From assembly GCA_045535095.1 (NCBI GenBank), contig JAZSKY010000043.1, positions 1 to 58,844 of the forward strand: a DNA stretch of 58,844 nucleotides. The letters are read 5' to 3'. Position numbers and translations under genes: made by a program. Below are positions 4,113 through 21,851 of this stretch, piece by piece. Position 1 is the stretch's first letter. The number at the start of each line of letters is the position of its first letter. This stretch comes from Eubacteriales bacterium. GTDB taxonomy: Bacteria > Bacillota > Clostridia > Oscillospirales > CAG-272. Under the pieces are notes generated by a model. The model did not search any database and had not been told where the DNA came from. It saw only the letters and a list, made by a program, of their open reading frames with translations.

Positions 4113-4526
4113 ATTACCCCGGCCGCCTCGGCGGCTGGGGAAACCCCAAAAAAAGCTGTCGAAATTTGTCGGATAAAAGTAAACACTCAAATTAGCACAA
4201 GGATCACAAATTCCCAAAACAAAGTGGGAATTTTGGTATTTTTCTATATTGACGCTTGTGATAGCTTCGAATTTCACTGAGTTATCTCACTAAAAAACGA
4301 TTTGAGAATTATCTATTATGGTGCCCAAACGAGGCTATTTATTACGGCCCCGGTGGCCGATATTTTAAAGAAGTTGATGCGAAAATTGTCGATAAAGCGA
4401 GAGTTACATATTGTAACCCCGCGCGCATCGTACATTCCATACCAAAAGAATATATAGGATTTTCTTTTGGAGAAAATTCAACATAAATGATATTTACATA
4501 AAAATGAAGAAAGAAGGCGAAAATCT

Positions 4527-5453: not shown

Positions 5454-5470
5454 TCTAAGGATGGTAATAT

Positions 5471-6034
5471 ATGTCATTTATAAAATCATTTAGCTTGTTC
5501 TATCTTTCATTAACTCCACTATGGGTATCAGTTGTATTTGTTGATGTCAGGAGTTTATGTGGAAACACAGTCAACCCGCTTACAGAAATTATAAGTATCA
5601 TTTGTATCGGCGCGGCGATGATTATTTCGGCGATTGTTGTGATGTTGACTTTTAGGAAAAAGAATGTTTCCAAGACACAATATTATACCCTGACAGAGGT
5701 AAAAGAGGAAAAATTTCTAACAGTAGAATATGTGCTTTCTTATGTTTTGTCGTTGCTTGCATTTGATTTTACGGTTTGGTATGATGTAGTACTATTTATT
5801 CTGCTTTTCTTGGTATTGTCCTTTTTGCATATTCGTCATAATATATTATGTGCAAATGTTGTACTTGAAATGTTTGGGTATAAGTATTACGAGTGCACAT
5901 TGACAAACGAGGATGGTGTACAGATCCAAAAAAGCGTTATTAGTCATAGAGACTTGATAACACAAAGAAACGAGTATATCTATGCCAAACCTATCAACAA
6001 TGAATATTATTTAGAAAGACTCCAAGTAAAGTAA
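5471..6034 (+). CDS. kwaA: Kiwa anti-phage membrane protein KwaA-like
   Basis: 187 aa, ~4 hydrophobic helices, KwaA-like pattern EYVLSYVLSL...NVVLEMFGYKYY; co-oriented with the kwaB-like gene. Confidence 0.65.
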   Translation: MSFIKSFSLFYLSLTPLWVSVVFVDVRSLCGNTVNPLTEIISIICIGAAMIISAIVVMLTFRKKNVSKTQYYTLTEVKEEKFLTVEYVLSYVLSLLAFDFTVWYDVVLFILLFLVLSFLHIRHNILCANVVLEMFGYKYYECTLTNEDGVQIQKSVISHRDLITQRNEYIYAKPINNEYYLERLQVK

Positions 6035-6249: not shown

Positions 6250-6296
6250 GCACATAAACCGCTTTTTCGACTGTGGTTTATGTGCTTTTTGTTTTG
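6249..6296 (+). terminator. Intrinsic terminator-like hairpin in the Rhs leader
   Basis: AGCACATAAACC (6249-6260) / GGTTTATGTGCT (6275-6286) followed by TTTTGTTTTG. Confidence 0.6.
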
Positions 6297-6334
6297 TGTC
6301 GAGAACAAAAACAACAAAGAAAGGATATACAACA

Positions 6335-9300
6335 ATGAATAAGTTCTCAATCAAACTAATATCTTTAATACTCAGCATCGCTATTATCCTCGTGACAGTG
6401 CCGTTGACAGTTTTCGCTACAACGAGAGATAAAAGCGAAGATGCGAACACAATTATCACCGACGAAGCAATGCTTGGAAATATAATGTCGGATATATACG
6501 AACTCACAGATAGGCGCGACGAATACACAAAACACTTCCGCCTTGAGGACGGAAGCGTTATTGCGGCGCAATACGATGACCCTGTTCACTATCTTGACCA
6601 AAATAATAATTGGCAGGATATAGACAATACTCTTTCGGATGTTGGTAGCGAATACTCAACGAGTAACGCCAAGATCAAGTTTGCGAAAAAGATCACCGGC
6701 AACGAAAGTCTGTTCACTCTTCACGACGGAAACGCCAAGATTACCATGAGTCTTGACGGTGCGATAAAAAAGACAGCAGGCACCGTAATTAACCACAGCG
6801 ACGATAATGAAATGACAAAGCTCCAGAAGATGATGTCGCTTGAAAAAATATCTGCTACTATCGTTTATGCGGATATTTTAGACGGTGTAGATCTCGAGTA
6901 CATTGTCAAATCGGACTACGTTAAGGAAAATATAATCGTAAAGGAACGTCAAAACTCGTACGCATATACCTTTACGCTAAAACTTAATAATCTCGATGCC
7001 GTCCTGAACTCTGATGGATCGATAAGCATTATCGAGCCGGGAACTGATAACATAGTTTACGCTATTCCGGCTCCTGTGGTTTACGACGATAATTACAACT
7101 ATGCTCCGAGCGAAGCGGCGTATTATTTGCTTGACAAAATCGGAACAAATAAATATTCTCTTACAGTTCAAGTGGATTCGGAATGGATGAATGCAGAAGA
7201 ACGTGTGTATCCCGTTGTAGTTGACCCTACCGTATATAAAGGTGGACGCAAATTGGGACAAATGAGAGATACCTATGTGAGCTCTGCTAATCCAGGTACC
7301 AACTACGGCGGACAAAAGGTTTTGCGTGCAGGGTATGACCCCACATACGGCCATACCAGGTCATACATATATCTCAAGCCGTTGCCCACACTGCCTAAGG
7401 GATCATATATAACATCGGCGGAAATCAATTTACAGATATCCAGTATATCAGAATTAAACGATATTACTCTTGCCGCGTATACCATAGATATGGGAACGAC
7501 AAGCTTGTGGAGCGAAACAAAAACGACTTGGAGTACTCATCCCGCGCAATTTTCGCAGCTTCTTGACTACGTAAATATTGAGTATATGACAGAAACCTAC
7601 GATTGGTCGTGGGATATTACCGAAGCGGCGAAGAAATGGTATAGCGGAGCTCTTCCTAATCACGGAATTTGTATCGGACTCTTGGAAGAATCGCTAACAT
7701 CTACCAATTGTGTCGTTTTCCACGCTTCCGAAAGCGATTCGTCTGCCGCCGGTTCATATTTGCCGTTCTATAGCTTCACTTACAGAGACGCAAAGGGTCT
7801 TGAGGATTATTATTCGTATTCATCTGGGAGTGCAGGACTTGTTGGCACATACAGTATTAATAATGCTACTGGAAATATGGTGTTAGTCACACCGCTTCTC
7901 TCTACAACGGACAGCTTGATGCCACTGACACTCTCGCTTGTGTATAACTCGACTCTGGCAGGTATTCCGTATCAGTATTCGGACAGTGTGATGACCGCAT
8001 ATACTAACGGATATACACCGTATGGATTTAAACTTAATATTCAAGAAACGATAATTAAGAAATCCTATATCAATTCGTCGCACGCAACGGCATATCACTA
8101 TATTTGGGCTGATGCTGATGGAACGGAACATTATTTCCTTCCTATTGAGGGAGAGAATAATAAATATCAAGATGATGATGGACTCCAGCTAATACTGGAT
8201 ACATCTTCCTCTACACAGCTTACGATTACAGATAATAGCAAAACCGTAAGAAAATTTGCCAAAATGTCATCATCGCCGAGTGGCACGGCAGAGGCGTGGT
8301 ATCTATCGAGCATTGCAGATAAAAACAATAATGCCGTATCGTTTGCATTTGATGGCGCTTACCGCCCGATAGCGGTGAACTTAGTGCCTAATGGCGGTTC
8401 TCCCATAAACTTCATTACGTTGTCTTATAATACGAACGGACTGCTGTATCTTGTTTGGAATCAAACAAGTAAGGACGGAGTCGTTATAAAATACAGGGAT
8501 CAGTTTGGAAACACTGCCGAAGGTTATGAATATGTTTTGGGTCAAATAAGCTACCTTCACGGAAATGATAGCACGACATTGCAAAACTGGAACGATTATT
8601 ATAACAGTTCGAGCAATCAAAATAATATCACTCTTGACGCTCTTGCTAATTATACGATTATGTACAACAGTCTTTCCCGTGCGTATGATTCACTATCAAA
8701 TTCCACATTTGTATTCGGATATGTCGGCAATGGCACTAACGTAAGCTTAAAGCAAGTTCAAAAAAGTAGTAATAACACTACAGGCCAAAAAATATCTTTT
8801 GAATACTTTAATGGTTACACCGAAATCAGAACGAGCGGCTCAGACGATGTTCACGGAAACGACGACGATATTATCACCGTGTGCACATTTGACGGTGAAC
8901 TTAGATTAAAGTCTAAATATTCAACCGATCTTTCGCGGTCGAAAATATACGGTGCTGTTTCGGGTGAATATGAAACCCAGCAAAATGTCAAAAACAACGT
9001 AAAACACTCGACAACCGTTGGTGGAAGTGCCACGAATTATTTGGTAAATGGTGGGTTTGAAACGACGACCACGAGCGGTGTGATGAGCGGTTGGTCGCGA
9101 ACCTCGAATGTATACCTAAGAACTACCGGTGGAGGTGGCACTCGCGACTGGGGATATATAGAAGTCCGCGCCCAAGCAGGAGTTACCGATAGCGTATCTC
9201 AGCACGTTTTGCTTCCCGAGGGAGAATATACGCTTTCAATGAGTTTGGATAGCGGATCCGCCACAAATGCCAAGGTCTACATGAAAGCCGTTTCTGTAAG

Positions 9301-12300
9301 CAATGGCACACACACCTTTATTAAAGAGTGTCCTGTTAGCAAAGACTATGCAAGCAGTACTATTGAAGTGAGTATGCCTATATCCGCACTCAACGTAACA
9401 AACGGCGGTGAGATTTTTAAAATATCAATCGAAGTTACGGGAGACAGCAATTTAAGCGGTTACTGTAGTGTGCAGTTTGACAATGTCATGCTTGCAAAAT
9501 GCGTCGGAAGTGCACCGTTTACTCGTGTAGAATGTGGTGACTTTGAAAGTTTTTCGGTGAATTCAAATGGTTCGTTTATTACTTCTGTAAGTGATTTTTG
9601 GGAAACCTCCGGAAGTAGTGTAGATTTGGAAGCTTCTGCCTATCCCTTTGGAAACGTAGCATATATCGAGTCAAACAACGGCAATACTGAATATGTAAAG
9701 CAACGAATATACACCGCCGGATACAGTATACTGGATGATTACGACAGTGGGGCGGCGTATTATGAGAGCGACAAGACCTACGTCGTGGCAGGATTTGCAA
9801 AAATATGCAACTCTCTTCCCAAGGACGTTGCCAGAATAAGAGTTGACGTGAATTATTACCAAGGAAGCGGAAATGACCTTTACGTTCAACCATATTACTT
9901 TGACTTCCAAAAAGGCTCTGACGCTTGGCAATTCGTCAGCGGAACATTCGATACAACAGCCGGCGATGTAGTACACTCTATCGATATATACTGTGAGTTT
10001 AGTTCGATCGGTCTCGGATATGCGATGTTTGATAATATCTCGGTGTTCCAAAGTGGAATTGACGAGTTTGAAGAATGTCTGTATTACGGAGACGCGGATG
10101 GCGCTAAAAACGGACTTTTGTATTACAAGAAGTCCGGTTCGTACTACGAAGTCTATGACTACGATAATCAGAAAAATCTCACCCGTGTTGCCAATAATAT
10201 GGGTGAAATACACGACTATACGTACGATGATAAGGGAAATGTTGTTCGCGAAGTATATTATAAATTCCAAAACAACAACGGTTTACCTATTTATCCCGTC
10301 TTTAACAACGACCCCGATTCTTTCATCACCAAAACCCCGCAGACGATAACAGAGTATCACTATAATAATTCCTATGGACTTCTCAGTGAAATCGATGCTT
10401 ATGAAGCACAGTATAATAGTAATGGCGATGTTGTTGCTAAGACAAACGCAAAGCACGTAATCACAAGCTACTCCTATAATCTCGGTGGCGAGTCAAGGAT
10501 TTTTGGATCACTTGCGACCGAAACAAGCAGCCGAGGTGTAGTTACAAGATATTATTACGATGCTACAAACGGACATCTTCTTGCTACGGTAAATCAAAGC
10601 AAGGGAACCGGTATTTGTTATACGTATGATGCACTTGGAAACATAACATTGGTTACACCGGCAACGTACGTATCAAGTACACAGCAGTATTCCTCTGTAA
10701 ATAATGCGGAAAAGGTAGAATATACCTACAACTCCAATAACCGCCTTAATACCATTACAACAGAGTCAACGACGTATTACTTTAACTACGACGCTTTCGG
10801 AAATGCTACCGATATAAGCGCGGGAGATAGAGAGCTTGCAAGCTATACGTATAACCCTAATAACGGCAAGCTTGCAACTATGACTTACGGTAATGGAACT
10901 ACCGTAAGATATGTTTATGACGAACTTGACAATATCAAGGAACTATGGTATAATGTGGGAGGTACAGAAACCAAGGCGTATGAGTATTCTTATACTTGGC
11001 TCGGACAGATAGCACGCTTTGATGATCTGATAAACGGCACAAGCGTTATATATACTTATGACGGCTCAGGAAGACTGACAAACGTTACCGAATATGACAC
11101 CGCAGATATGAAGAATAACTTCGGTGCATACACATTTTACAACGAGAAATCGCAGGTTAGCTCGGTATTTTATTCATCGGACTATATATACCCGGCTGGT
11201 GTGGAAAGCACTTCTTGGTGGTATAGTTATTCGTATATGCCCGATGGAAGTCTGGATTACGTAAGCGTAAATTCGGATATAACCATGGGTGAAATAGACT
11301 ATACTTACGATACGTTTAATCGCATTACGTCCAAAAAGTATTCCTACACCTACGATTATGAAACCGATTACGTAAATAACGTAACTTATTCGTATGCTCC
11401 GGGAGTTTACGATAACACGACAGCTCTTGTAAGCGGCTATACGAGCACGGTAAACGGAACAAGTACAAATTATAGCTATATTTATGATAGCAACGGTAAT
11501 ATAGAGAAAATTTATATCGGCACTACTGCGGTGTATAGATATAAATACGATGATCTCGGACAGCTCGTGCGCGAGGATAACGTTGAGCTTAACCGCACCT
11601 ACGTCTATACCTACGATAACGCAGGCAATATCCTCACCAAAAAGACCTATGCTCTCACATCGGAGGGCGTAACTCCTACAAACCCGCAGAGCACGGTAAA
11701 CTATGGTTATAACGATGCAAGCTGGGGCGACCTTCTCACATCGTATGGCGGTCAAAATATAACCTATGATGCGATAGGTAACCCTCTCTCCTACTACAAC
11801 GGAAGTAGATATACTTTCACTTGGAAGCAGGGCAGAAGGCTTGCAACAGCCGTAAAGGGAAGCAACACTCTGTCCTTTGAATATAACGACGAGGGTATTC
11901 GCGTAAGCAAGACGGTAAACGGCGTTAAGCATTCGTATCACCTTAACGGAAGCCAGATAGCGTACGAGGAGTGGGGAAATAACCTTCTCATATACCTTTA
12001 CGATGCAGACGGGAGCCCGATCGGAATGCTTCACAGAACAACATCGGATGCTTCCTACGACTTCGATGCATATTGGTTTGAAAAGATCCTGCAAGGCGAT
12101 ATAGTTGCCGTTTACAGCAGCAGCGGCACAAAGCTTGTAACCTATAAGTATGATGCTTGGGGTAATATAACCACTACCTACTATAACGGCGGTGCTTCTA
12201 CCGTAGCACAGTATAACCCTTTCCGTTACAGAGGTTATTATTACGATACCGAGACGGGGCTCTATTATGTATCCAGCCGTTATTATGATCCTGAGATTGG

Positions 12301-13036
12301 TCGGTGGATTAATGCGGATAATCAGTTCTCTACAGGTAGTGATTTGACAGGAATGAATTTGTTTGCTTACTGCGGCAATAATCCTGTTAATAGAATTGAT
12401 CTTACCGGAGAAGCTTGGTGGCATTGGGCACTTGGAGCAGCTGTTGTAGCAGCTTGTGCGGTTGCCACAGTAGTTACCTGTGGAGGTTTTGCAGCCGCAG
12501 CAACGGCTGTTTGTATGGTTGGTAGTGGTGTTGCGGCTGCTACGACCGCATCAACTGTTGCCGCCGGAGCATTTATAGGGTCGGCAACTGTTTATGGTAT
12601 GGCAGTTTTGTCTGCCGCATCCACGTCGAGTTCCGTGCAAGAGTTCAATGACCAAGGAAACTGGGGTACAGTAGCGGCAACGGCTTTCGGTGGACTAACG
12701 GGCGGATATGATGGATATACAATGTCCAAAGCACAAACACCGACAAGTACCCCGACAGGGAGAGGTACGCAGAATCCGAAAGTAAAAGCAGCGGTTCAAA
12801 AAGGTCAAGCAATGCACAAACAGATGGATTATGGACCTGGAGTTTTAAAAGAACAAACAATCGCACCTGGATGTAGGGTTGACGGAATAGATTTTAACAA
12901 TCGTATTATATATGAATTGAAACCCAACAATCCACAAGCTATTGCTCGAGGAATGAACCAGCTCAATAGATACACATCAGCCGCAAGTCAACAGTTTGGT
13001 GGGACTTGGACGGGTGTGCTTAAATTGTATGATTAG
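6335..13036 (+). CDS. WapA-like Sec-exported Rhs/YD-repeat polymorphic toxin with DNRLRE domain and C-terminal restriction-endonuclease-fold toxin (Tox-REase-9-like)
   Basis: ATG 6335 after AAAGGA; signal peptide; DTYVSS..P.TNYG DNRLRE region; YD repeats; core NPFRYRGYYYDTETGLYY...NNPVNRIDLTG; Ala/Gly-rich pre-toxin helices; tip RVDGIDFNNRIIYELKPNNP...G.NQL.RY (PD-(D/E)xK). Confidence 0.92.
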   Translation: MNKFSIKLISLILSIAIILVTVPLTVFATTRDKSEDANTIITDEAMLGNIMSDIYELTDRRDEYTKHFRLEDGSVIAAQYDDPVHYLDQNNNWQDIDNTLSDVGSEYSTSNAKIKFAKKITGNESLFTLHDGNAKITMSLDGAIKKTAGTVINHSDDNEMTKLQKMMSLEKISATIVYADILDGVDLEYIVKSDYVKENIIVKERQNSYAYTFTLKLNNLDAVLNSDGSISIIEPGTDNIVYAIPAPVVYDDNYNYAPSEAAYYLLDKIGTNKYSLTVQVDSEWMNAEERVYPVVVDPTVYKGGRKLGQMRDTYVSSANPGTNYGGQKVLRAGYDPTYGHTRSYIYLKPLPTLPKGSYITSAEINLQISSISELNDITLAAYTIDMGTTSLWSETKTTWSTHPAQFSQLLDYVNIEYMTETYDWSWDITEAAKKWYSGALPNHGICIGLLEESLTSTNCVVFHASESDSSAAGSYLPFYSFTYRDAKGLEDYYSYSSGSAGLVGTYSINNATGNMVLVTPLLSTTDSLMPLTLSLVYNSTLAGIPYQYSDSVMTAYTNGYTPYGFKLNIQETIIKKSYINSSHATAYHYIWADADGTEHYFLPIEGENNKYQDDDGLQLILDTSSSTQLTITDNSKTVRKFAKMSSSPSGTAEAWYLSSIADKNNNAVSFAFDGAYRPIAVNLVPNGGSPINFITLSYNTNGLLYLVWNQTSKDGVVIKYRDQFGNTAEGYEYVLGQISYLHGNDSTTLQNWNDYYNSSSNQNNITLDALANYTIMYNSLSRAYDSLSNSTFVFGYVGNGTNVSLKQVQKSSNNTTGQKISFEYFNGYTEIRTSGSDDVHGNDDDIITVCTFDGELRLKSKYSTDLSRSKIYGAVSGEYETQQNVKNNVKHSTTVGGSATNYLVNGGFETTTTSGVMSGWSRTSNVYLRTTGGGGTRDWGYIEVRAQAGVTDSVSQHVLLPEGEYTLSMSLDSGSATNAKVYMKAVSVSNGTHTFIKECPVSKDYASSTIEVSMPISALNVTNGGEIFKISIEVTGDSNLSGYCSVQFDNVMLAKCVGSAPFTRVECGDFESFSVNSNGSFITSVSDFWETSGSSVDLEASAYPFGNVAYIESNNGNTEYVKQRIYTAGYSILDDYDSGAAYYESDKTYVVAGFAKICNSLPKDVARIRVDVNYYQGSGNDLYVQPYYFDFQKGSDAWQFVSGTFDTTAGDVVHSIDIYCEFSSIGLGYAMFDNISVFQSGIDEFEECLYYGDADGAKNGLLYYKKSGSYYEVYDYDNQKNLTRVANNMGEIHDYTYDDKGNVVREVYYKFQNNNGLPIYPVFNNDPDSFITKTPQTITEYHYNNSYGLLSEIDAYEAQYNSNGDVVAKTNAKHVITSYSYNLGGESRIFGSLATETSSRGVVTRYYYDATNGHLLATVNQSKGTGICYTYDALGNITLVTPATYVSSTQQYSSVNNAEKVEYTYNSNNRLNTITTESTTYYFNYDAFGNATDISAGDRELASYTYNPNNGKLATMTYGNGTTVRYVYDELDNIKELWYNVGGTETKAYEYSYTWLGQIARFDDLINGTSVIYTYDGSGRLTNVTEYDTADMKNNFGAYTFYNEKSQVSSVFYSSDYIYPAGVESTSWWYSYSYMPDGSLDYVSVNSDITMGEIDYTYDTFNRITSKKYSYTYDYETDYVNNVTYSYAPGVYDNTTALVSGYTSTVNGTSTNYSYIYDSNGNIEKIYIGTTAVYRYKYDDLGQLVREDNVELNRTYVYTYDNAGNILTKKTYALTSEGVTPTNPQSTVNYGYNDASWGDLLTSYGGQNITYDAIGNPLSYYNGSRYTFTWKQGRRLATAVKGSNTLSFEYNDEGIRVSKTVNGVKHSYHLNGSQIAYEEWGNNLLIYLYDADGSPIGMLHRTTSDASYDFDAYWFEKILQGDIVAVYSSSGTKLVTYKYDAWGNITTTYYNGGASTVAQYNPFRYRGYYYDTETGLYYVSSRYYDPEIGRWINADNQFSTGSDLTGMNLFAYCGNNPVNRIDLTGEAWWHWALGAAVVAACAVATVVTCGGFAAAATAVCMVGSGVAAATTASTVAAGAFIGSATVYGMAVLSAASTSSSVQEFNDQGNWGTVAATAFGGLTGGYDGYTMSKAQTPTSTPTGRGTQNPKVKAAVQKGQAMHKQMDYGPGVLKEQTIAPGCRVDGIDFNNRIIYELKPNNPQAIARGMNQLNRYTSAASQQFGGTWTGVLKLYD

Positions 13037-13047
13037 AGGTGAGATAA

Positions 13048-13458
13048 ATGATGCTTAATCATAATGAATATTTGAATTATACATTACCTAACAATTGGTG
13101 TGCCGAAGAGGATATTGATAATCTTCTTTTGTATAATCCCAGCGGCAATGGTGCGATAACAACATCTTTTTTCAATGTTTTAAAAACAAAAGAATCTTTA
13201 GATGAGCAGATAAGCATATTGGCCAAAAGATTTATTGAACAAAATAATATCAATCTGCATTCTCCTTTAATACTTTTCAACAGAGATGGCAAGACAATTT
13301 TGTACGGAACAGGCACAACATCTGATGGTTGGTTTATAAAATTGTGGGTTGTTGCCAAACACCCGAAAATAGTGTTTGCCACATATCAAAGTGAACGAAA
13401 AAGCGCTGAAGTGAAAGTATGTGATTCTATCATCGATAGTTTTCAGTTCGCATTTTAG
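13048..13458 (+). CDS. Putative immunity protein for the Rhs REase tip (PsbP/DcrB/DUF3805-like fold)
   Basis: Immediately downstream of the toxin, RBS GAGGTGA; N-terminal YTLPNNW and C-terminal IIDSFQF patterns typical of PsbP-like folds. Confidence 0.65.
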   Translation: MMLNHNEYLNYTLPNNWCAEEDIDNLLLYNPSGNGAITTSFFNVLKTKESLDEQISILAKRFIEQNNINLHSPLILFNRDGKTILYGTGTTSDGWFIKLWVVAKHPKIVFATYQSERKSAEVKVCDSIIDSFQFAF

Positions 13459-13638
13459 TCATGGTATTATTTGAGATAAAAAGGTTTCAGGAATGTTCCT
13501 GACAAGTCTGTGTTTGGGTGTCCAAAAATGATGCTTGTCGGTACATAACAGTACCATTCTCTTTTTCGGCGAGTAACCCACCGAAAAACAACGTCCCGGA
13601 GGGGGACAACCCCTCCGGGTACATAGCAAAACCCAGCC

Positions 13639-14418
13639 GAAATCGGATTCTATTACCTCAACAGCAGATACTACGATCCCGAAATGGGTAGGTTTATTAA
13701 TGCGGATGGCGTGATGTCCGGTGCAGACGGATCACTACAAGGTGCAAATCTGTTCGCTTATTGCTTTAATAATCCGGTTAATCTTGATGATTCTGATGGT
13801 AATTGGCCCAATTGGTTGAAAGTTACGATTGGCGCTGTTGCAACCGTGGCCGCGGTCGCTATTACAGTAGCAACCGGAGGTGCGGCAGCTCCGGTTTTGA
13901 TTGGAGTGGCAGCAAGCACTGTGGGCGGTGCGGCGTTTGGGGCAGTCAACCACCGTATTACCACTGGAAGCTGGGAAGGAGCAGGAGAAGCCGCTTTAGA
14001 TGGAGCTGCAGATGGATTCATGTGGGGAGGAATAGGCGCCCTCGGATCTTCTGCTGTGTCTGCCATCCCCAAAATTACAAAGGCAGCCAATGCAGCAAAG
14101 TCAGATCCTATAAAAAAAGCGCTGAAACAATTGGATTCATCTGGTCTGCGTCCCGGACAAACATCAATATCTCGCAGCAGAGTTATGGAACTTGTTAACA
14201 ATTTTGACTCAACTAAAGCTCAAAGTTGTGTATATTCAAACGGTGCAACAAGATTTTTAGTAGATGGGCATCATACTACAGTAGCAAGTACAATTTTAGG
14301 AAAAGGTACTTGTATGAATATGGGAGCAGTTACATCACAGTTGCCTTCTGCAACAAATGTATATTGGTCAAAAAATTGGTATGAATTTGGAAAGACAGTC
14401 ATTAAAATTATGGATTGA
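13639..14418 (+). CDS. Orphan Rhs C-terminal toxin module (core remnant plus ParB/Srx-like tip)
   Basis: Begins mid-core as EIGFYYLNSRYYDPEMGRFINAD, with an in-frame stop just upstream (13624) and no clear RBS; NNPVNLDDSDG; hydrophobic pre-toxin region; tip LRPGQ...FLVDGHHT. Confidence 0.8.
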   Translation, partial: EIGFYYLNSRYYDPEMGRFINADGVMSGADGSLQGANLFAYCFNNPVNLDDSDGNWPNWLKVTIGAVATVAAVAITVATGGAAAPVLIGVAASTVGGAAFGAVNHRITTGSWEGAGEAALDGAADGFMWGGIGALGSSAVSAIPKITKAANAAKSDPIKKALKQLDSSGLRPGQTSISRSRVMELVNNFDSTKAQSCVYSNGATRFLVDGHHTTVASTILGKGTCMNMGAVTSQLPSATNVYWSKNWYEFGKTVIKIMD

Positions 14419-14427
14419 GGGGATGTA

Positions 14428-14958
14428 ATGAAAAAAAAATCTGCTTTTGCCGAACTATTATATGTTGTTTCAAATTTTGAAAAAGGTAGGGTAAAATCCT
14501 CTGGTATATGGAATAAAAAATATGTTAAATCATTGGAAAGTTCAATAGAAATTATGACCCTTCTTACAAATTTAATTTCAGGGAATAAAGAAATTTCACA
14601 AAACGAAATTCATTTTTTACAAGACTTTATTCATAAAAACAAAGGCATTATTTTTAATAACGAAGGAAATATTGATGTTATTTTTGATGATAAAAACGAT
14701 TTTATACCTTCATCTAATGACTTTGAAGAACCCATAAAATTAATGAACTATATCATAATAGAAATCAAGAATCTTTTACGCACCAAGAGCAAAAACTATA
14801 AAATTAAAATATCGTATTTACTGAAAGCGTTTCATAACTTGCCAAAAGTTTTTCTCGACCCAAAAGATACTCGAGTGTTTAATCTTGATATTCATCCCAT
14901 AGACCAGCAAGAAGCCGTTCAATACGCATTTTCATATATTTCAATAATATACAAATAA
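14428..14958 (+). CDS. Putative immunity protein for the orphan toxin
   Basis: Directly follows the orphan tip, RBS GAGGGG; very AT-rich; contains FHNLP. Confidence 0.65.
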   Translation: MKKKSAFAELLYVVSNFEKGRVKSSGIWNKKYVKSLESSIEIMTLLTNLISGNKEISQNEIHFLQDFIHKNKGIIFNNEGNIDVIFDDKNDFIPSSNDFEEPIKLMNYIIIEIKNLLRTKSKNYKIKISYLLKAFHNLPKVFLDPKDTRVFNLDIHPIDQQEAVQYAFSYISIIYK

Positions 14959-15265: not shown

Positions 15266-15754
15266 ATGGGTACAGTTTCATTAAAGCTTGAACTTACAGA
15301 AGATTATGGCGTGACAGATGCGTGGGTCTTTACAGCAACCGAATATAATTTTGTAGTCAAAGAATCTGATCTTGGGACATACTTAACCGAAGAAGAGCTT
15401 AAATCTTCTGAAACAATAGAAAAAGTCAAAAGTTATCTTAAGACGAAAGATGAGTTTGGGTTTCAAGGCAAGGATATAGAGTCATTTGAGAGCTTTTATT
15501 TGGCGACAATAAAGACGGAAATAAAAAACGAGCATGAGAAGAAACACGCTCTTGTGGTAGTTGCGTATGAAGATAACGGATGGTGGGAAGGATACTGCTG
15601 TCACGTACTATACGATATTTACCGCATAGGAGATTCGATTTTTGCGGATTTAGATTACCATGCAGGGGATGAGAGTTACACGGAAACCGTCAGCGACGTG
15701 CTTAATGGACTTGATGACGATTATACGTACAAACTCATAAAGAAATTTGGATAA
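15266..15754 (+). CDS. Acidic hypothetical protein (possibly a gene remnant)
   Basis: ORF between a consensus promoter and a terminator. The track's TTG at 15206 is the -35 box, so ATG 15266 is preferred; no clear RBS. Confidence 0.5.
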   Translation: MGTVSLKLELTEDYGVTDAWVFTATEYNFVVKESDLGTYLTEEELKSSETIEKVKSYLKTKDEFGFQGKDIESFESFYLATIKTEIKNEHEKKHALVVVAYEDNGWWEGYCCHVLYDIYRIGDSIFADLDYHAGDESYTETVSDVLNGLDDDYTYKLIKKFG

Positions 15755-15755
15755 G

Positions 15756-15787
15756 AAAATAAGCCGCTCGGAAGAGCGGCTTATTTT
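15756..15787. terminator. Bidirectional intrinsic terminator
   Basis: AAAATAAGCCGCTC-GGAA-GAGCGGCTTATTTT perfect inverted repeat. Confidence 0.75.
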
Positions 15788-15838
15788 GATGCATATATCG
15801 TTTTATCGCTTCATAAAATGTTTGCTTTTTAATAATGA

Positions 15839-15965
15839 TTTCAAAAACACCAGTAATTTTGAAAGCGATTGAAATTTTATCAGCAGTAAAAAGGGCTACA
15901 AAACACCAGTATTTTTGAAATTGAATAGAATATTCAATAACACCCCAACACCAGTGTTTTGGAAA
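15839..15965. repeat. Three copies of a ~26 bp pseudo-palindromic site
   Basis: AACACCAGT(A/G)(A/T)TTT(T/G)GAAA at 15846, 15902 and 15947; idealised consensus TTTCAAAAACAC-CA-GTGTTTTTGAAA. Confidence 0.7.
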
Positions 15966-16401
15966 TGGCCGTTTTGTCGCACCAATCTTTAGATAACACA
16001 GCGTGAATTTTTTCGTTTTGCTCGTTTTTTTGTGTTTTTTTCTATCCAATTATGCTACAAAATCTACATTATTCGGGAACTTACCTTAAAACACCGTCTT
16101 GCTTGCTCTCGTGTGAACTTTCTATGAAATATAACGTAAGAAGATAATTAATGTAATAAAGATATCTAGATGTCGAACTTCTAATTTGTAAATCGTTAAT
16201 ACTGATATATTTGCCTATAAAACTAAAACCTTATCAATGGAGTAAACAGTGTCGTAGCTTAATTGCAACGGTACTGTTTTTATTTTATGAATTTTGATAA
16301 TTAAAATGCTGAATTTATCTAAATTTGCATCTTTGTAATTACTTTTTCTTTCATACTTATATTGAAAGAAAAAACATGAGAGGAGAAAAAAATAACCGAA
16401 T

Positions 16402-16608
16402 GCTGGTTATACCGCATGTAATTGTGGTATAACCAGCCAACTGTTCGGAAACAGGGATGCTTACGTGAATAGTCAACCCGTAAGATCCGCCTAGCTCGGC
16501 GAAAAGATTAAGAAAAATATTAGAAAACTATTTTGAATAACTTTTCCTAAAATGTAGCCAAGACCGTTTAACACCCACCGTGGTGGCGCAATTGTAAAAT
16601 TACAATTG
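16402..16608 (+). other. Multi-hairpin structured leader upstream of the tyrosine recombinase (candidate ncRNA or recombinase/nicking site)
   Basis: Stems at 16402-16437 (15 bp with one G-U), 16441-16454, 16455-16488, 16575-16586 and 16589-16608. Confidence 0.5.
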
Positions 16609-16660
16609 TGATTTAAAAAATCTTACATACTTAAAATAGAAAAAAGAAAAGGAGAAAAAT

Positions 16661-17614
16661 ATGGGAAAGCGGAAAAGAAAAGCAACCGTTACACAGCGAA
16701 TCACCGCAGAAGCAACAGAGCAGTTAAGTGGCATCAAGCATGATGCTACCCGGAAACAGTACATACGGCATTTTAAATCGTATGTACGTTATTGCAGAGA
16801 CACACACAATGTTAAGTTTCTTGAGGATTGTCAATCGTACGTCCAGGATTACTGTGACAATTTAGTAAGCAGCGGAAAGTATAGCGCCTCGACAGTACAC
16901 ACGTATATTGCAGCAATATGTAGAGTACTTAACATTAACATGCGTATTGTGAAAAAGCCAATACGTCATGTGGCCGACTATGTACGCGGACGTACAGAGA
17001 GGTTCGGAGGTGCTACTTATGATGAAAACGATCCAAGATGGTCATATGTCGTAGAATTTCAAAAGAGAGTTGGCATTCGACGGAATGAACTTGAGCATTT
17101 GCGTGGGTGCGATTTTGCGACCGATGAAAGTAATTATCCGTGTGTGCTGGTTAGATGCGGCAAAGGCGGTAAGATTCAATATCAGCGTATAGATGTGGAA
17201 GATATTGAATTTGTGCGCCAGTTTTTTACACGCGTTGAAAAAGATGATTATATTTTTGAAAAATCGTTGTTCCAAAATAATCTTAATTTACATGGACTGC
17301 GTGCCGACTGTGCAAAAAAGTATTATGCAGATGTGCTAAAACGCCTTAAGGAAGATCCGAAATACGCCAAACAACTCGAAGGCAAAATACGAAAACGATG
17401 GGATTTATACTGCCGTGATAAGAAGGGAAGACCTCGTCGGTTTCCTGAACATGAAATTCGTGGTTGGTATATATTACGTGGTAAAAATCGCGAAATGGCA
17501 CGCAGAAAAGGATTGCCTGTATCATATAACAAACTGGCGTTAATGGCTACATCAATTTTTAAGTTGTCACATTGGCGAAATGATGTGACTGTGGCTAGCT
17601 ATCTTTTGGCATAA
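16661..17614 (+). CDS. Tyrosine recombinase (divergent, Integrase_1-like, no arm-binding domain)
   Basis: Catalytic set R (GIRRNEL), K (GKGGK), HxxR (HGLR), H (LSHWR), Y (ASYLL); SAM-like N-terminus (YSASTVHTYIAAI); RBS AAGGAG. Confidence 0.85.
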   Translation: MGKRKRKATVTQRITAEATEQLSGIKHDATRKQYIRHFKSYVRYCRDTHNVKFLEDCQSYVQDYCDNLVSSGKYSASTVHTYIAAICRVLNINMRIVKKPIRHVADYVRGRTERFGGATYDENDPRWSYVVEFQKRVGIRRNELEHLRGCDFATDESNYPCVLVRCGKGGKIQYQRIDVEDIEFVRQFFTRVEKDDYIFEKSLFQNNLNLHGLRADCAKKYYADVLKRLKEDPKYAKQLEGKIRKRWDLYCRDKKGRPRRFPEHEIRGWYILRGKNREMARRKGLPVSYNKLALMATSIFKLSHWRNDVTVASYLLA

Positions 17615-17647
17615 AAAAATAATTAAAAATAAAAAAGGAGAATTGGT

Positions 17648-18064
17648 ATGAAACAAACAACGTTCAATGAAATTTGGGATGAGGCGCATAATGACAGAGA
17701 GGAAATGTTATCGATGTATTTTAAATCTGAATATTTATCTCGTTTGTTAAGTAAAAAGGAGATTATTATGACACGAGATACTATAGCGGCCGCAGAGGCA
17801 ACAAGAACCTTTGATGACTTTTGCAATGTTTTTAATAAGTCGGCACTTAGTATTATGGAAGAATTTGAAATTCCATCCGATGTTGTTGATGAATGGCGCA
17901 ACGGTACATTTCCTCTGTACTTGAAACGTATGATTGCATGTTCGCTCGTATCTGCTGCTATTGAAGATGGTCGTTGCAAAACTTGTCAGTTATGTGGTGA
18001 ATTTTTCTTTTCTAAACACAAGACGGCTTTGTTTTGCGAGGATTGTTGTGAGTGTGTTTTCTGA
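17648..18064 (+). CDS. Small HTH-like protein with C-terminal Cys-rich zinc finger
   Basis: RBS AAGGAG; HTH-like FEIPSDVVDEWRNG; C-terminal CQLCG...FCEDC. Confidence 0.6.
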   Translation: MKQTTFNEIWDEAHNDREEMLSMYFKSEYLSRLLSKKEIIMTRDTIAAAEATRTFDDFCNVFNKSALSIMEEFEIPSDVVDEWRNGTFPLYLKRMIACSLVSAAIEDGRCKTCQLCGEFFFSKHKTALFCEDCCECVF

Positions 18065-18197
18065 AACAAGAAAAAATCGCTATTCAAAAACCACTTTATT
18101 TATTTTTTTCTGTCATACTTATTATGTCGTGCGCGATACTGTTCATGGCCATGAACGAAAATCTTATCAAAAAAACAAACAGAAAAGGAAAAAACTT

Positions 18198-19655
18198 ATG
18201 GAAAATTCGAAACAGAATGTGTCTTGCATTAGTGACACAATAGCATCAACAGAAGCGTTTTTAAATTCGGTTAAACCAGAAACTGGTTATCCCTACAGTC
18301 ATTCCGACATTGGAGCCGCAGAGCTATTTGCAGATTGTTACAAAGACATTTTACGGTACAGTCCGGAACGTAAAAAATGGTATCACTATAAGGATGGCGT
18401 TTGGTCAGTAGATAAGGGAGGTGATATTATAGCAATGAATTTTTGTCAAAATCTAGCCAAAAGATTATGTGACTATGCTACAAATCTATGCGGAAAATAT
18501 CAGTATGAAAAATTTGTTGCTTTTGTATCAGGTTGGCAGAGACACAGCAAACGGGTAAATATACTAAATGATGCACGAGGATATCATCCAATGTCGATGG
18601 AAATGCTGGATCGGGATATATATGCATTTAATTGTCAAAACGGAACGCTCCATCTAGACACTATGGAGTTTACGCAGCATCGCCCTGGTGATATGATTTC
18701 AAAAATCAGCAATGTGATCTATGATCCTAGTGCAAGATGTAATCGATTTTTGACTTTTATCGATGAGATTACCTGTGGAGATAGTGAAAAAGCAAGATTC
18801 TTGCAAAAAGTTTTAGGGTATAGCTTGACGGGAGATACTCGCTACGAATGTATGTTTTTTCTGTACGGTGCCACAACGCGCAACGGCAAGAGTACATTAT
18901 GCGAAAGTGTCCTAAAAGTCATTGGTGAGTATGGTTGTACTGTGCGACCGGAAACTATAGCTTTAAACAAATACGCTAACAGCCATGCGCCGAATGAGGA
19001 TGTGGCACGATTGATAGGTATTAGATTTGCCAACATATCAGAAATATCGCCAACACTTGCAATTAATACATCCCAAATCAAAAGTATGCTGGGTAACGAT
19101 ACAATCAATGCTCGCTTTTTACACGAAAACAGCTTTGATTTTAAAATACAGGCCAAATTTTTTGTAAACACAAATTATTTGCCAAATATAGAGGATGAGT
19201 CTGTATTTAGTAGCGGCCGTATAATTGTAATACCCTTTACAAGGCACTTCTACGAGCATGAACAAGATAAAACGTTAAAAACTCTATTTGCACAACCGGA
19301 AAATCAAAGTGCTATACTTAACTGGTTGGTCGAAGGGTACAAAATGCTTTTGGAAGAAGGTCTTAACATTCCAGTGTCAATAGAAAACGCAACTTCTGAA
19401 TATGCCGGCGATAGCAACATATTTGTTAAATTTGTTGCTGACAAGTTGATTGAAGATCCTGATTCCGAGATCCGTACCATGCAGGCATATCAAGAATACA
19501 AACAATGGTGTCTTGATAACGGATATGGTCCAGTGTCTATCCAACGTTTTGTGAGCGTATTAGCTAACATTGTAACCATCCGAAAAAAACGACCTAAAAC
19601 AGGCGGTAATCCCACCGGAATGATTTGTGGTTATAGATTGGTGATACAACAATGA
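18198..19655 (+). CDS. Phage/plasmid P4/D5-family SF3 helicase (D5_N plus helicase; no primase domain)
   Basis: ATG 18198 after AAGGA; D5_N motifs (NCQNGTLHLDT); Walker A GATTRNGKST; Walker B region FANISE; motif C VNTN; C-terminal wHTH-like region. Confidence 0.88.
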   Translation: MENSKQNVSCISDTIASTEAFLNSVKPETGYPYSHSDIGAAELFADCYKDILRYSPERKKWYHYKDGVWSVDKGGDIIAMNFCQNLAKRLCDYATNLCGKYQYEKFVAFVSGWQRHSKRVNILNDARGYHPMSMEMLDRDIYAFNCQNGTLHLDTMEFTQHRPGDMISKISNVIYDPSARCNRFLTFIDEITCGDSEKARFLQKVLGYSLTGDTRYECMFFLYGATTRNGKSTLCESVLKVIGEYGCTVRPETIALNKYANSHAPNEDVARLIGIRFANISEISPTLAINTSQIKSMLGNDTINARFLHENSFDFKIQAKFFVNTNYLPNIEDESVFSSGRIIVIPFTRHFYEHEQDKTLKTLFAQPENQSAILNWLVEGYKMLLEEGLNIPVSIENATSEYAGDSNIFVKFVADKLIEDPDSEIRTMQAYQEYKQWCLDNGYGPVSIQRFVSVLANIVTIRKKRPKTGGNPTGMICGYRLVIQQ

Positions 19656-19755
19656 TGTAATGTGTAGCGTTGTAGCGGATATTTGGCGATATAAAAATAA
19701 TATAATAGCATAAATTAGAAAAATATAATGTATATATCCGCTACATTCGATACAA
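19656..19755. other. Putative replication origin of the element
   Basis: TGTAGCGGATAT (19671-19682) / ATATCCGCTACA (19734-19745) inverted repeat with extra TGTA(G) repeats, flanking a ~50 bp AT-rich core directly after the helicase stop. Confidence 0.55.
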
Positions 19756-20110: not shown

Positions 20111-20159
20111 ACATTCAAAACATATAATGATACAACGAACTTTATCAAGGAGAACAACA

Positions 20160-21851
20160 ATGGATATACTTAATATTAGAGCACTCTTGCGTACGAAATC
20201 CATATATGACATTCCTCTTCGCGTGACATTTTATGCCCGTGTTTCCTCGGAAACCGACGAGCAGCTCAACTCACTTGACAATCAGATTGCATACTACGAA
20301 AATTTTATTAAAAATAACGCAAAGTGGACCTATGTTCCCGGATATATCGACGAGGGTCTTTCGGGTATCTCTACGAAAAAAAGAAAACATTTCAATGAGA
20401 TGATCTCCGATGCGAAAGAAGGACTATTTGATCTTATCATTACCAAGGAGATTTCCCGATTTGCCCGTAACACATTGGACTCTCTGCAATATACAAGAGA
20501 GCTTATCAGACTAGGTGTGGGCGTGTTCTTTCAGAATGATAACATCAACACACTTGACGAGGATGCAGAGCTTCGTCTTACGATTATGTCATCTATCGCA
20601 CAGGACGAGCTTCGCAAGCTTTCGAGTCGTGTGAAGTTCGGTCATCAGCAAGCAATCAAGTCGAGCGTGGTTCTCGGCAACAGCCGCATTTTTGGATATA
20701 TAAAAGATGATAAAAAGCTGGCTGTCGATGAGAGCCAAGCTCCTATGGTACGCGATCTTTTTCGTCTGTATGCTACGGGCGAGTACAGTATGAAACAGCT
20801 TGAAACACTCTTTTATGACCAAGGTTATCGTAATTATAACGGTAACAAAATTGCTCATACTACGATGTCGGGCATTATCTCTAACCCTAAATACAAGGGA
20901 TATTATGTCGGCAACAAGGTGCGCGTTGTGGACATGTTTACCAAGAAACAGAAATTCTTACCGCCCGACGAGTGGGTGATGTTCAAGGATGAAACAGGGG
21001 AAATCGTGCCTGCAATCGTATCCGAGGAAATATGGGATAAGGCAAACGAAGTTCTGGCGCGCCGTAGCGAGGATGTGAAGAACCGCAAGGGTGTCTGCAA
21101 CCACGCCAACCTCCTAACAGGCAAACTGTATTGCACTCATTGCGGCATGCCTTACTATCGCCGAGAATCAAAAGATAAGCACGGTAATATTAATTCAAAA
21201 TGGGTGTGTTCCGGAAAGATAAATAACGGCGCTAGTTCATGCCCGTCTTTCCCGATATATGAAGACGAGATCAAACCGATTCTGTTCGATGTTTTCAATG
21301 AAACGCGAGTAGATGTGGAATCACTGATTGAAAGCTATATAGAGATGTTTAGGTCAATGGAAGCCGATGATGAGACTGCAAAACAGATAAAGGAGCAGAA
21401 GCGCACCATAGAGCTTGCAGAACAAAAGAAAAACAAACTTCTTGAACTTGTAACGCTTGGCGCTGTTACCGCAGAGAATTTTAAATCAATGACCACAGCC
21501 TGCGACCGAGAAATTGCGCAGGCGAGCGGAGAGATCGAGGAACTCGAAAAGCAGATGTTCACCAAAGATGAATACCGCAGACATATAGCAGAGGTCAGAA
21601 CACGTTTGGATGCGGCGGTAAGAGATGCCTCGACGGGTATAATATCCCCCGAATTCGTTGCGAGGTACATCGACAAAATCACGGTCACAATAACTGATGA
21701 TGATACAGCGAACTTGGAAATTAAGATTTTCACGGGTGAAAGTACTGAAAAATGGCTGAAAAAGCTTGATTTAAGAACTAAAATTCGTACGGGTGTCACT
21801 ATGAAGAAGATGGTCGAGAAGTACGAGAACGACCTTAAGAACAACAAATAA
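20160..21851 (+). CDS. Large serine recombinase (resolvase, recombinase and Zn-ribbon/coiled-coil domains)
   Basis: ATG 20160 after AAGGAG; YARVSS catalytic Ser; DEGLSG; ISRFARN; LLTGKLYCTHCG...WVC...C. Confidence 0.95.
   Translation: MDILNIRALLRTKSIYDIPLRVTFYARVSSETDEQLNSLDNQIAYYENFIKNNAKWTYVPGYIDEGLSGISTKKRKHFNEMISDAKEGLFDLIITKEISRFARNTLDSLQYTRELIRLGVGVFFQNDNINTLDEDAELRLTIMSSIAQDELRKLSSRVKFGHQQAIKSSVVLGNSRIFGYIKDDKKLAVDESQAPMVRDLFRLYATGEYSMKQLETLFYDQGYRNYNGNKIAHTTMSGIISNPKYKGYYVGNKVRVVDMFTKKQKFLPPDEWVMFKDETGEIVPAIVSEEIWDKANEVLARRSEDVKNRKGVCNHANLLTGKLYCTHCGMPYYRRESKDKHGNINSKWVCSGKINNGASSCPSFPIYEDEIKPILFDVFNETRVDVESLIESYIEMFRSMEADDETAKQIKEQKRTIELAEQKKNKLLELVTLGAVTAENFKSMTTACDREIAQASGEIEELEKQMFTKDEYRRHIAEVRTRLDAAVRDASTGIISPEFVARYIDKITVTITDDDTANLEIKIFTGESTEKWLKKLDLRTKIRTGVTMKKMVEKYENDLKNNK
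21785..21851 (+). pseudogene. Putative attR and displaced 3' end of an alpha/beta-type SASP (ssp) gene, in frame with the recombinase
   Basis: KKMVEKYENDLKNNK resembles the clostridial SASP C-terminal helix (MVKKMxExYE); codons switch to host style at ~21804; TCGTAC/GTACGA inverted hexamers at 21785 and 21821. Confidence 0.6.

Follow-up and report, generated by a model that had tools for sequence, protein, structure and literature searches.

What does a tyrosine recombinase do in a genomic island that already carries a serine integrase, and what is the role of the long structured leader in front of its gene? We address this question for a stretch of 58,844 nucleotides from a Eubacteriales bacterium (NCBI GenBank assembly GCA_045535095.1, contig JAZSKY010000043.1; GTDB lineage Bacillota, Clostridia, Oscillospirales, CAG-272), the whole of which we call the window. 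The open reading frame at 16661-17614 (+) encodes a divergent tyrosine-recombinase-fold protein of 317 amino acids, here named F0, and it is preceded by 260 nt of non-coding DNA. A preliminary description of the sequence had proposed that the enzyme acts on, or together with, a folded leader in this non-coding stretch. We find that F0 belongs to a family that we regard as uncharacterised tyrosine-recombinase-fold DNA-processing enzymes, and that a conserved, covarying leader accompanies the gene in nearly all loci surveyed. Tentatively, we read the gene and its leader as a mobilisation module in which the leader region contains a transfer origin.

The F0 protein and its family

F0 is a tyrosine-recombinase-fold enzyme. 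Its C-terminal catalytic domain carries the superfamily signature R...K...HxxR...(H/W)...Y, and the corresponding residues (R141, K168/K171, H211-x-x-R214, H304/W305 and Y314) do not vary among 20 aligned sequences with 51-59% identity to the F0 of the window. The AlphaFold model (mean pLDDT 84.2) has two domains, a helical N-terminal domain resembling core-binding domains (helices within residues 10-90) and the catalytic domain; an arm-binding domain is absent from the model. When the model was compared to known structures with Foldseek, every listed best match was a tyrosine recombinase, with the integron integrase 2a3v, XerA, Cre and XerH at the top (entries 2a3v, 5hxy, 4a8e, 1f44 and 5jk0). 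The TM-scores were low (0.2-0.3), as expected when two domains differ in orientation. R214 and Y314 are 100 residues apart owing to a conserved insertion, and residues 215-300 (86 amino acids) include 25 lysines and arginines compared to 10 aspartates and glutamates. Alignment, structural model and residue counts thus agree with the preliminary description, which had seen an intact tyrosine recombinase with no arm-binding domain and with a long basic insertion between HxxR and the catalytic tyrosine.

Judging from its profile matches, F0 is not an ordinary integrase. The Pfam model Phage_integrase (PF00589) does not match F0 at E-values up to 1, so that the catalytic domain goes unseen, and the N-terminal domain gives weak matches to SAM-like integrase domains of Pfam that are all below threshold. 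A search of the 1.73-Mb assembly with PF00589 recovered four other genes and missed F0, although a few of the F0 homologs have a precomputed match to this model. The best match among the NCBIfam models is the integron-integrase model TIGR02249, with 20.4 bits compared to a cut-off of 265, and searches of PHROGs and PADLOC returned nothing for F0.

The family is large. In the protein collection, 259 relatives of F0 were found at E<=0.001, and metagenomes contain at least 353 further relatives, of which 80 were kept for analysis. Species-representative genomes contain 64 F0 loci, nearly all of them in gut Oscillospiraceae, Acutalibacteraceae and other Clostridia. Among the cultured carriers are Oscillibacter valericigenes Sjm18-20 (L048) and Pseudoflavonifractor phocaeensis An858 (L038). 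A homolog with 36% identity is carried by an element of Streptococcus suis. The source genome of the window has one copy of F0.

Several genomes have two or three F0 loci. Furthermore, a number of contigs end inside or just beside F0 (L016, L030, L032, L037, L041, L043, L051, L053, L055-L057 and L065). Together, the contig breaks and the multiple loci per genome suggest multi-copy or repeated elements.

The leader and its conservation

The leader was described as structured, and this holds. The region 16395-16665 folds with -72.0 kcal/mol, compared to -48.3 +/- 4.6 kcal/mol in 200 shuffles (z -5.19), and no shuffle folded as well. The first of its parts on the + strand is the main hairpin (16402-16437), in which a 15-bp stem with one G-U pair closes a 6-nt loop; it contains the box GGTTAT...ATAACC, followed by AG. 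A small hairpin of 5 bp (16441-16454, CTGTT-CGGA-AACAG) comes next and is found in the window only. The 3' domain then starts with a hairpin (16455-16488) that has the stem CTTACG/CGTAAG and a loop with AUAGUCAAC. It continues with the conserved block GCCTAGCTCGGCG (16489-16501), which is identical in the closest loci L005 and L006, and with an A-U-rich variable hairpin (16501-16546) that is an insertion relative to most family members. The conserved 3' motif AGCCAAGACCGTTTAAC (16556-16572) includes GCCAAGACCG (16557-16566), which the preliminary description had singled out together with the CCACC/GGTGG hairpin (16575-16586, CCACC-GT-GGTGG) that lies directly 3' of the motif. After the structure follows a palindrome, CAATTGTAA-AA-TTACAATTG, and then TGATTTAAAAAATCT-ACATACTTA (16589-16608, not assigned to a strand). 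This stretch is near-identical in L005 and is a candidate operator or promoter region or a candidate weak terminator. The ribosome-binding site AGGAG (16650-16654, +) lies 6 nt before the ATG.

To what extent is this leader a trait of the family? We surveyed the upstream regions of 124 loci for the box hairpin within 700 nt of the gene. The GGTTAT/ATAACC hairpin was present within this distance in 110 of them and further upstream in another four (114/124), and it also precedes the 36%-identical homolog of Streptococcus suis. At least one of the two parts, main hairpin or 3' domain, was found in 120 of the 124 loci; the loci L011, L026, L100 and L103 have neither. Where present, the leader is invariably on the strand of the F0 gene. 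A comparison of the regions upstream of homologs had been proposed in the preliminary description, and it thus revealed a conserved and covarying leader down to 36% protein identity.

The main hairpin occurs in 54 unique variants. Across these, the box stays the same; compensatory changes are seen in both the outer and the inner stem, and the tips differ in length. Many variants retain a purine-purine mismatch and a bulged A beside the box, and many tips have 3-nt loops. That the double-stranded box is kept in sequence while the neighbouring stems covary would suit a protein-binding site.

In nine loci of one clade, the 3' motif takes the form GCCAAGAC-AATTTACC and is part of a conserved non-coding block that is collinear among them. 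For this clade, RNAalifold predicted 56 pairs, 13 of which show compensatory double changes; in a clade from the human gut, double changes were found in 16 of the 31 predicted pairs. We built a covariance model (R1) from the nine-locus clade, with the window left out. R1 recovers 16359-16532 (+) of the window with rough E-values of 0.0048 in 695 kb and 0.0007 in 101 kb, and it recovers further loci, each directly upstream of F0. In the metagenomes R1 detected only 3 of 77 loci, the model being dominated by clade-specific sequence, and the family-wide parts were then found by pattern search.

In the 3' domain, a hairpin with the loop (A/G)UGUC(G/A)A(A/C)C, of which AUAGUCAAC in the window is the counterpart, is followed by the block GCC-NN-GCUCGGCG, then by a variable hairpin, by A-rich sequence and lastly by GAGCC-(A/U)N-GAC-N-GUUUAAC. 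The latter contains the 3' motif, for which the consensus of the family is approximately GCC-(A/T)N-GAC-N-(G/A)TTTA(A/C)C. Homologs also have a hairpin right after this motif, several with UUCG or GAAA loops. The conservation of GCCAAGACCG, which was to be checked according to the preliminary description, is confirmed in that it is part of the 3' motif; by comparison across the family, it is the start of the most conserved single-stranded motif.

A helix forms between GCUC in the block and GAGC ahead of the 3' motif, and its sequence switches between clades (GCUC:GAGC, UCUC:GAGA, GCUG:CAGC or GUUC:GAAU). RNAalifold returned no structure for a mixed alignment of 28 3'-domain sequences, and we then checked the helix by direct pairing counts. 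The 4-bp helix is formed in 24 of the 28 sequences, compared to 12% for non-cognate combinations. Four sequences do not form it, namely those of the window, L005, L006 and L061, the last with one mismatch. In the window clade, a shifted pairing, GGC:GCC, seems to take its place. The full 3' motif, AAGAC-N-GTTTAAC, occurs once in the 1.73-Mb assembly. Thus, the element is a cis site beside the gene and not a dispersed target.

In the window, the reverse strand of 16395-16665 folds nearly as well as the + strand (z -4.96). The folding energy of the window alone is thus not strand-specific and would also agree with palindromes in DNA. In the family as a whole, the preference is for the + strand: its consensus energy is lower both in the nine-locus clade (-60.1 vs -49.0 kcal/mol) and in the human-gut clade (-28.4 vs -22.3 kcal/mol), single sequences favour it in 9/9 and 10/16 cases, respectively, and it is more stable in 47 of the 54 main-hairpin variants. 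From the family-wide preference, we take the functional fold to be single-stranded and sense to F0.

The preliminary description had also mentioned, for other phyla, a GCCAAGACC motif before Integrase_1 genes. We could not confirm this. An exact scan for AGCCAAGACNGTTTAAC, made in viral contigs only, gave 18 matches, none of them with the flanking elements of the leader or with an F0 homolog; they are unrelated coding matches, and most belong to two conserved sequence families. By a rough estimate of the size of the collection, 18 matches are near the number expected by chance. Integrase_1 is found on 11% of the members of one Atlas cluster (rank 30).

As far as our searches show, the protein family and the element are undescribed, since Rfam, Pfam, NCBIfam, PHROGs and PADLOC lack both. 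A literature search, supplements excluded, found no description of DUF6870 (a neighbour family, see below), of the F0 gene family or of the element.

Three minor observations concern the surroundings of the leader. First, a conserved block, TCTGTCATAAC-TATGTCAAATA, is located ~60-90 nt upstream of the structured element in L008, L009, L012, L013, L017, L022, L028, L033, L034 and L061. It contains two direct TGTCA repeats spaced one helical turn and may serve the operon as a promoter or as a binding site for a protein. Second, the A+T-rich spacer upstream of the leader in the window contains a weak sub-threshold Rfam match to STnc100 (15751-15832, -; 29 bits compared to a gathering threshold of 47, E 8.6e-4), which is probably due to chance. 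Third, one human-gut locus has a drum RNA (Rfam RF02958, 85.5 bits; L105:1547-1663, -) ~1.2 kb upstream of F0.

A possible mobilisation module and the alternatives

Recombinase-like proteins that act as relaxases have been described before, namely TcpM of pCW3, MobK of pIGRK and MpsA of SGI1, and an inverted-repeat-rich origin is adjacent to their genes, usually upstream (PMC8152469, PMC6414798, PMC6137059). With hairpin-rich upstream origins described for these three systems, the word unexplained, used for the recombinase in the preliminary description, should be softened. The same description had pointed to TcpM as an analogy, and this gains support from a profile comparison. With hhalign, the F0 profile matches TcpM with 74% probability (E 2.8e-5, 109 columns), which is below the confident level and was obtained with a single-sequence template. 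The alignment spans the blocks RxxE, GKGGK and HxLR-x3-AK-x2-Y. The same profile reaches 17% over 27 columns for a phage-type integrase, 1.5% for another integrase and 0.4% for the Xer-like protein of the host. With single-sequence templates throughout, the absolute values are weak, but the ranking of the four recombinase-fold proteins is clear, with TcpM best.

F0 and TcpM have in common a tyrosine-recombinase-fold catalytic domain, their occurrence in Clostridia and a non-coding region of a few hundred bases before the gene that is rich in hairpins or repeats. On pCW3, the intergenic region before tcpM has repeats and three consecutive hairpins, and a 150-bp oriT lies within the non-coding region (PMC6137059). 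The two systems also differ. TcpM, which is annotated in RefSeq as 'MobM family relaxase', has 266 amino acids and lacks the ~70-residue basic insertion of F0. Its gene belongs to a complete tcp conjugation locus and has coupling-protein genes as neighbours, whereas no transfer genes are in view in the F0 islands, and the sequence of its oriT is unrelated to the F0 element. TcpM is reported to depend on the accessory protein TcpK and to show no sequence-specific nicking in vitro (PMC6137059).

SGI1 resembles the F0 islands in being an integrative mobilisable island with a separate integrase and with a recombinase-like enzyme in place of a classical relaxase; in SGI1, an inverted-repeat-rich origin is near the gene (PMC9299015, PMC6414798). 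There, the core-binding-like MpsB and the catalytic MpsA are separate proteins, whereas F0 has both parts in one chain. Furthermore, SGI1 belongs to Proteobacteria, and we liken it to F0 by description. MobK, in turn, is encoded on the small cryptic plasmid pIGRK; its origin is in the preceding intergenic region with several inverted repeats, and its catalytic tyrosine is needed (PMC8152469). With ~28 kDa and no core-binding domain, MobK differs from F0, and here too the comparison is one by description.

Distant homologs of F0 are likewise found beside a Rep gene on small plasmids. These plasmids of 3.5-5.5 kb otherwise carry only RepL or Rep3 and small open reading frames, and on pATHE02, pYA01-1 and pRGI00233 the F0-like gene adjoins the Rep gene. 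This is the classic Rep + Mob layout, and MOB-suite types the plasmids as non-mobilisable. The homologs on them are only 24-29% identical to F0, and the GGTTAT hairpin is not present upstream of their genes, in which they differ from the islands. A further comparison can be made with clostridial mobilisable transposons of the Tn4451/Tn4453 type, which combine a large serine recombinase, responsible for excision and insertion, with a classical Mob/Pre relaxase whose target site immediately precedes the relaxase gene. These are also small clostridial elements with a serine recombinase and a mobilisation protein, but this protein is a Mob/Pre relaxase and does not have the recombinase fold.

The linkage of gene and element across the family, the conserved box, the profile match to TcpM and the small islands with their own integrase lead us to favour, tentatively and with less than even confidence, a mobilisation module similar to those of TcpM, MobK and MpsA, in which the upstream hairpin region is both a transfer origin and a leader. 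The islands are considered small since housekeeping genes lie within a few kb of the F0 loci. Under this reading, the separate integrase and not F0 would integrate the island, and F0 would work in cis on the element upstream of its own operon. We infer binding, nicking, a cut site and transfer as follows. On the + strand, F0 would bind the base of the main hairpin at its GGTTAT/ATAACC box, the hairpin being extruded or single-stranded, and Tyr314 would cut one strand nearby. The excised island could then be transferred by a co-resident conjugative element, and the remaining folded region may be an accessory origin structure, a transcribed leader or both. Of the earlier suggestion that F0 works on the leader fold or together with it, the association of gene and element is thus borne out by comparison, with a single-strand nicking or transfer origin and a bound RNA as the two candidate mechanisms.

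Several observations weigh against a mobilisation module. Canonical relaxase, coupling-protein and type IV secretion domains were found neither in 134 neighbour representatives (drawn from 173 clusters of proteins with at least 200 amino acids, 39 being left out for size) nor in the other neighbour proteins scanned. As no conjugation machinery is near any scanned locus, a helper must be assumed. The match to TcpM reaches no more than 74% probability, and with a single sequence, and among the NCBIfam models no TcpM-type model names F0. The known recombinase-like relaxases are reported to be without a core-binding domain (PMC8152469), whereas F0 has one, which lowers the probability of close membership in this group but not that of a similar function. 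The element itself exceeds usual origins in both size and complexity: it has at least five covarying helices and spans ~250 nt, or up to ~550-600 nt of conserved non-coding sequence, with no conserved + strand open reading frame, in the human-gut clade. The window copy fits the covarying helix of the family poorly. In L015, L016, L021 and L025 the 3' domain is present without the main hairpin, and L033 contains a partial second copy of the leader (4207-4385), with the 3' domain only, ~1 kb upstream of the full copy. This partial copy directly precedes a 134-aa open reading frame and an F2-family open reading frame. In several clades, the 3' domain ends 15-40 nt before the start codons. In one clade, a terminator-like hairpin with a U-tract is found just before the ribosome-binding site in 15 of 93 cases on the + strand, compared to 3 on the - strand and 3 in shuffles. 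The elaborate covarying region, the lone 3' domain, the nearness to start codons and the terminator-like hairpin would thus suit a leader RNA better than an origin.

This leads to an alternative that we consider possible, although doubtful, namely that the element forms a structured RNA of a new kind, made as part of the operon transcript. This RNA could be a cis-regulatory 5' leader of F0 and its small partner genes (an attenuator or a protein-binding leader) or a cofactor of F0. The DNA substrate of F0 would then be located elsewhere or consist of the hairpin alone. In addition to the traits just described, the covariation of many helices and the better folding of the + strand in consensus, single sequences and main hairpins are consistent with an RNA, and the conserved sequence of the 3' domain is found in loops and junctions. 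GNRA and UNCG tetraloops are more frequent on the + strand (55 compared to 27 on the - strand, among 655 unique four-base-loop hairpins); this excess is moderate and results partly from the purine-rich composition of the + strand. Furthermore, on the Caldicellulosiruptor plasmids pYA01-1 (L001) and pATHE02 (L002), which carry distant homologs, a promoter with the consensus sequence TTGACA-17-TATAAT precedes the F0-like gene by ~540 nt. The promoter is followed by a hairpin and by a long conserved non-coding stretch ending in GACAGGTTCAACAG, which suggests that a long leader precedes these distant homologs as well. A precedent exists in SGI1, which needs the essential structured sgm-sRNA encoded between mpsA and oriT (PMC9299015). 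The sgm-sRNA derives from a long primary transcript, which is also the mRNA of the open reading frame S022. The strand-biased structure predicted here is sense to F0.

Other observations point to DNA. In a consensus scan of 15700-17700, neither a sigma-70 promoter nor a terminator was detected in the leader, and the numbers of matches were at the level of shuffles. In the window clade, the conserved palindrome and a -10-like stretch between structure and gene are traits of a DNA site and suggest that the promoter of the gene is downstream of the structure. The best-conserved feature of the whole element is a base-paired box, which is unusual for an RNA and typical of protein-DNA sites. The 3-nt loops of many hairpin tips are likewise a trait of a DNA site. 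The strand bias does not tell RNA from DNA, as single-stranded DNA also tolerates G-T wobble and purine-purine mismatches. Two results are neutral in this respect. Rfam 15, searched with permissive E-value thresholds, matched the element neither in the window nor in 12 related loci, and a listing of public runs for 16100-19700 of the window contains DNA contigs only, with small shares, and no RNA run.

A more specific version of the RNA alternative, which we judge unlikely, is that the 250-600-nt element represents a new class of structured RNA that F0 needs. Such an RNA could be a cofactor that assembles the enzyme on hairpin DNA, as the sgm-sRNA with MpsA, or, as a bolder proposal, an RNA that provides specificity. 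F0 would then be a widespread RNA-dependent tyrosine recombinase or relaxase of gut Firmicutes.

It is less likely still that F0 is a conventional site-specific recombinase for which the main hairpin is a duplex palindromic core site, and which resolves multimers of the excised, replicating island or plasmid in the manner of Cre/loxP or XerS. The two-domain fold similar to Xer and Cre and the complete active site agree with such a function, and several of the islands and plasmids have replication genes. The site of the window consists of 15-bp inverted arms around a 6-bp centre, similar to lox and dif, and it adjoins the gene, just as difSL adjoins xerS. Among the 54 variants, however, the spacing between the halves of the box ranges from ~10 to 45 nt and the centre is always self-complementary, which does not fit a fixed spacer of 6-8 bp. 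Moreover, a duplex site leaves no role for the conserved purine-purine mismatches and the bulged A at the base of the stem, some members keep the 3' domain but not the hairpin, and the Xer-like protein of the host is the poorest of the four profile matches (0.4%).

We consider it very unlikely that F0 recombines folded single-stranded hairpins, as the integron integrase does on attC or XerCD on the CTX phage. The enzyme would resemble IntI in being a tyrosine recombinase without an arm-binding domain, and the hairpin has a similar anatomy to attC, in that the paired foot is conserved, as are mismatches and a bulged A, and the variable terminal stem-loop differs in length. The single best Foldseek match is the attC-bound integron integrase (2a3v, E 1.1e-4), and the best NCBIfam match is an integron integrase model as well. 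However, XerA and Cre have about equally good Foldseek scores, the NCBIfam match is far below its cut-off, each genome and locus has one full element and no cassette array, and no second partner site was found. The order and sequence of the R and L boxes of attC also differ from the box of the F0 leader. The integron-like action considered in the preliminary description is thus not supported. Lastly, a system of the IS110 bridge-RNA type was rejected, as IS110 recombinases are DEDD/RuvC-like and F0 has the tyrosine recombinase fold; the likeness is limited to the position of the element.

Gut bacteria very commonly contain small islands that consist of little more than an integrase gene and some genes of unknown function and, to our knowledge, it is mostly unknown how these islands move between cells. 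If F0 is relaxase-like, as the mobilisation module implies, hundreds of islands in Oscillospiraceae, Acutalibacteraceae and streptococci would become recognisable as mobilisable, which typing tools now call non-mobilisable. The tiny group of recombinase-like relaxases would gain a large and well-alignable branch, and the box, the mismatches and the covarying helices of the cis element would be direct experimental handles. If the element is an RNA, it would be a new class of large structured RNA tied to a DNA-processing enzyme and, after that of SGI1, the second RNA in such a module. In either case, the GGTTAT...ATAACC hairpin, GCUCGG and GAC-N-GTTTAAC beside the gene can be used as an annotation marker.

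The island and its neighbouring genes

Downstream of F0, the window encodes a small protein of 138 amino acids (17648-18064, +) with a Cys-rich C-terminus and no family match, whose homolog in the closest locus, L005, is located between the leader and F0. It is followed by a P4/D5-type primase-helicase (18201-19655, +) with the domains D5_N, DUF5906 and primase_Cterm; its start is uncertain, as the frame is open from 17934. The separate serine integrase that had been noted in the element is a large serine recombinase (20127-21851, +) with the three domains Resolvase, Recombinase and Zn_ribbon_recom, and it is the integrase of the island.

The right junction of the island was found at 21804-21851 (+), where the last 16 codons of the serine recombinase are the 3' end of an interrupted gene for a small acid-soluble spore protein of the alpha/beta type. 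This gene is intact in related genomes (L071, L073 and L075; ...GGQMVKKMVEKYENDLKNNK), and its 5' half is absent from the contig and from the assembly. The island is thus at least 21.8 kb long or runs off the left end of the contig; with the junction at ~21804 and the 5' half of the spore-protein gene missing, it extends past this end and the leader is internal. We had considered the leader as an att site or as the left end of the island, and its position inside the island rejects this. The G+C content is 0.33-0.47 up to 22 kb and ~0.42-0.53 beyond.

Of 53 genome loci in the family, 21 were found by manual reading to have a large serine recombinase gene downstream of F0 and in the same orientation, as does the window; this gene often comes after a DUF6870 gene. 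A tblastn search with the serine recombinase of the window detected it as adjacent in 16 of the 92 loci with enough downstream DNA, which undercounts divergent ones. The serine recombinase as an obligatory partner of F0 was rejected, as it is adjacent in ~40% of the genome loci. Other F0 loci have a classical tyrosine integrase, Rep3, a primase, a replisome organiser, an exonuclease or defence genes nearby.

Further upstream, the window contains genes for defence and toxins. A Kiwa-like defence pair (4527-6034), which consists of a KwaB-like gene (4527-5453) and then a KwaA-like gene (5471-6034), is located upstream of a toxin locus. This locus (6296-14958) encodes an RHS-repeat protein of 2246 amino acids with a Tox-REase-9 C-terminus, followed by an orphan fragment of an RHS core and toxin (13684-14418) and by small candidate immunity open reading frames. 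Toxin genes also occur at other loci, where CdiA-CT RNase-like cassettes are found a few kb upstream of F0 (L008, L028, L033 and L061). In a single locus, a reverse-transcriptase gene (RVT_1, L010:3927-4946) is located 1.8 kb downstream of F0.

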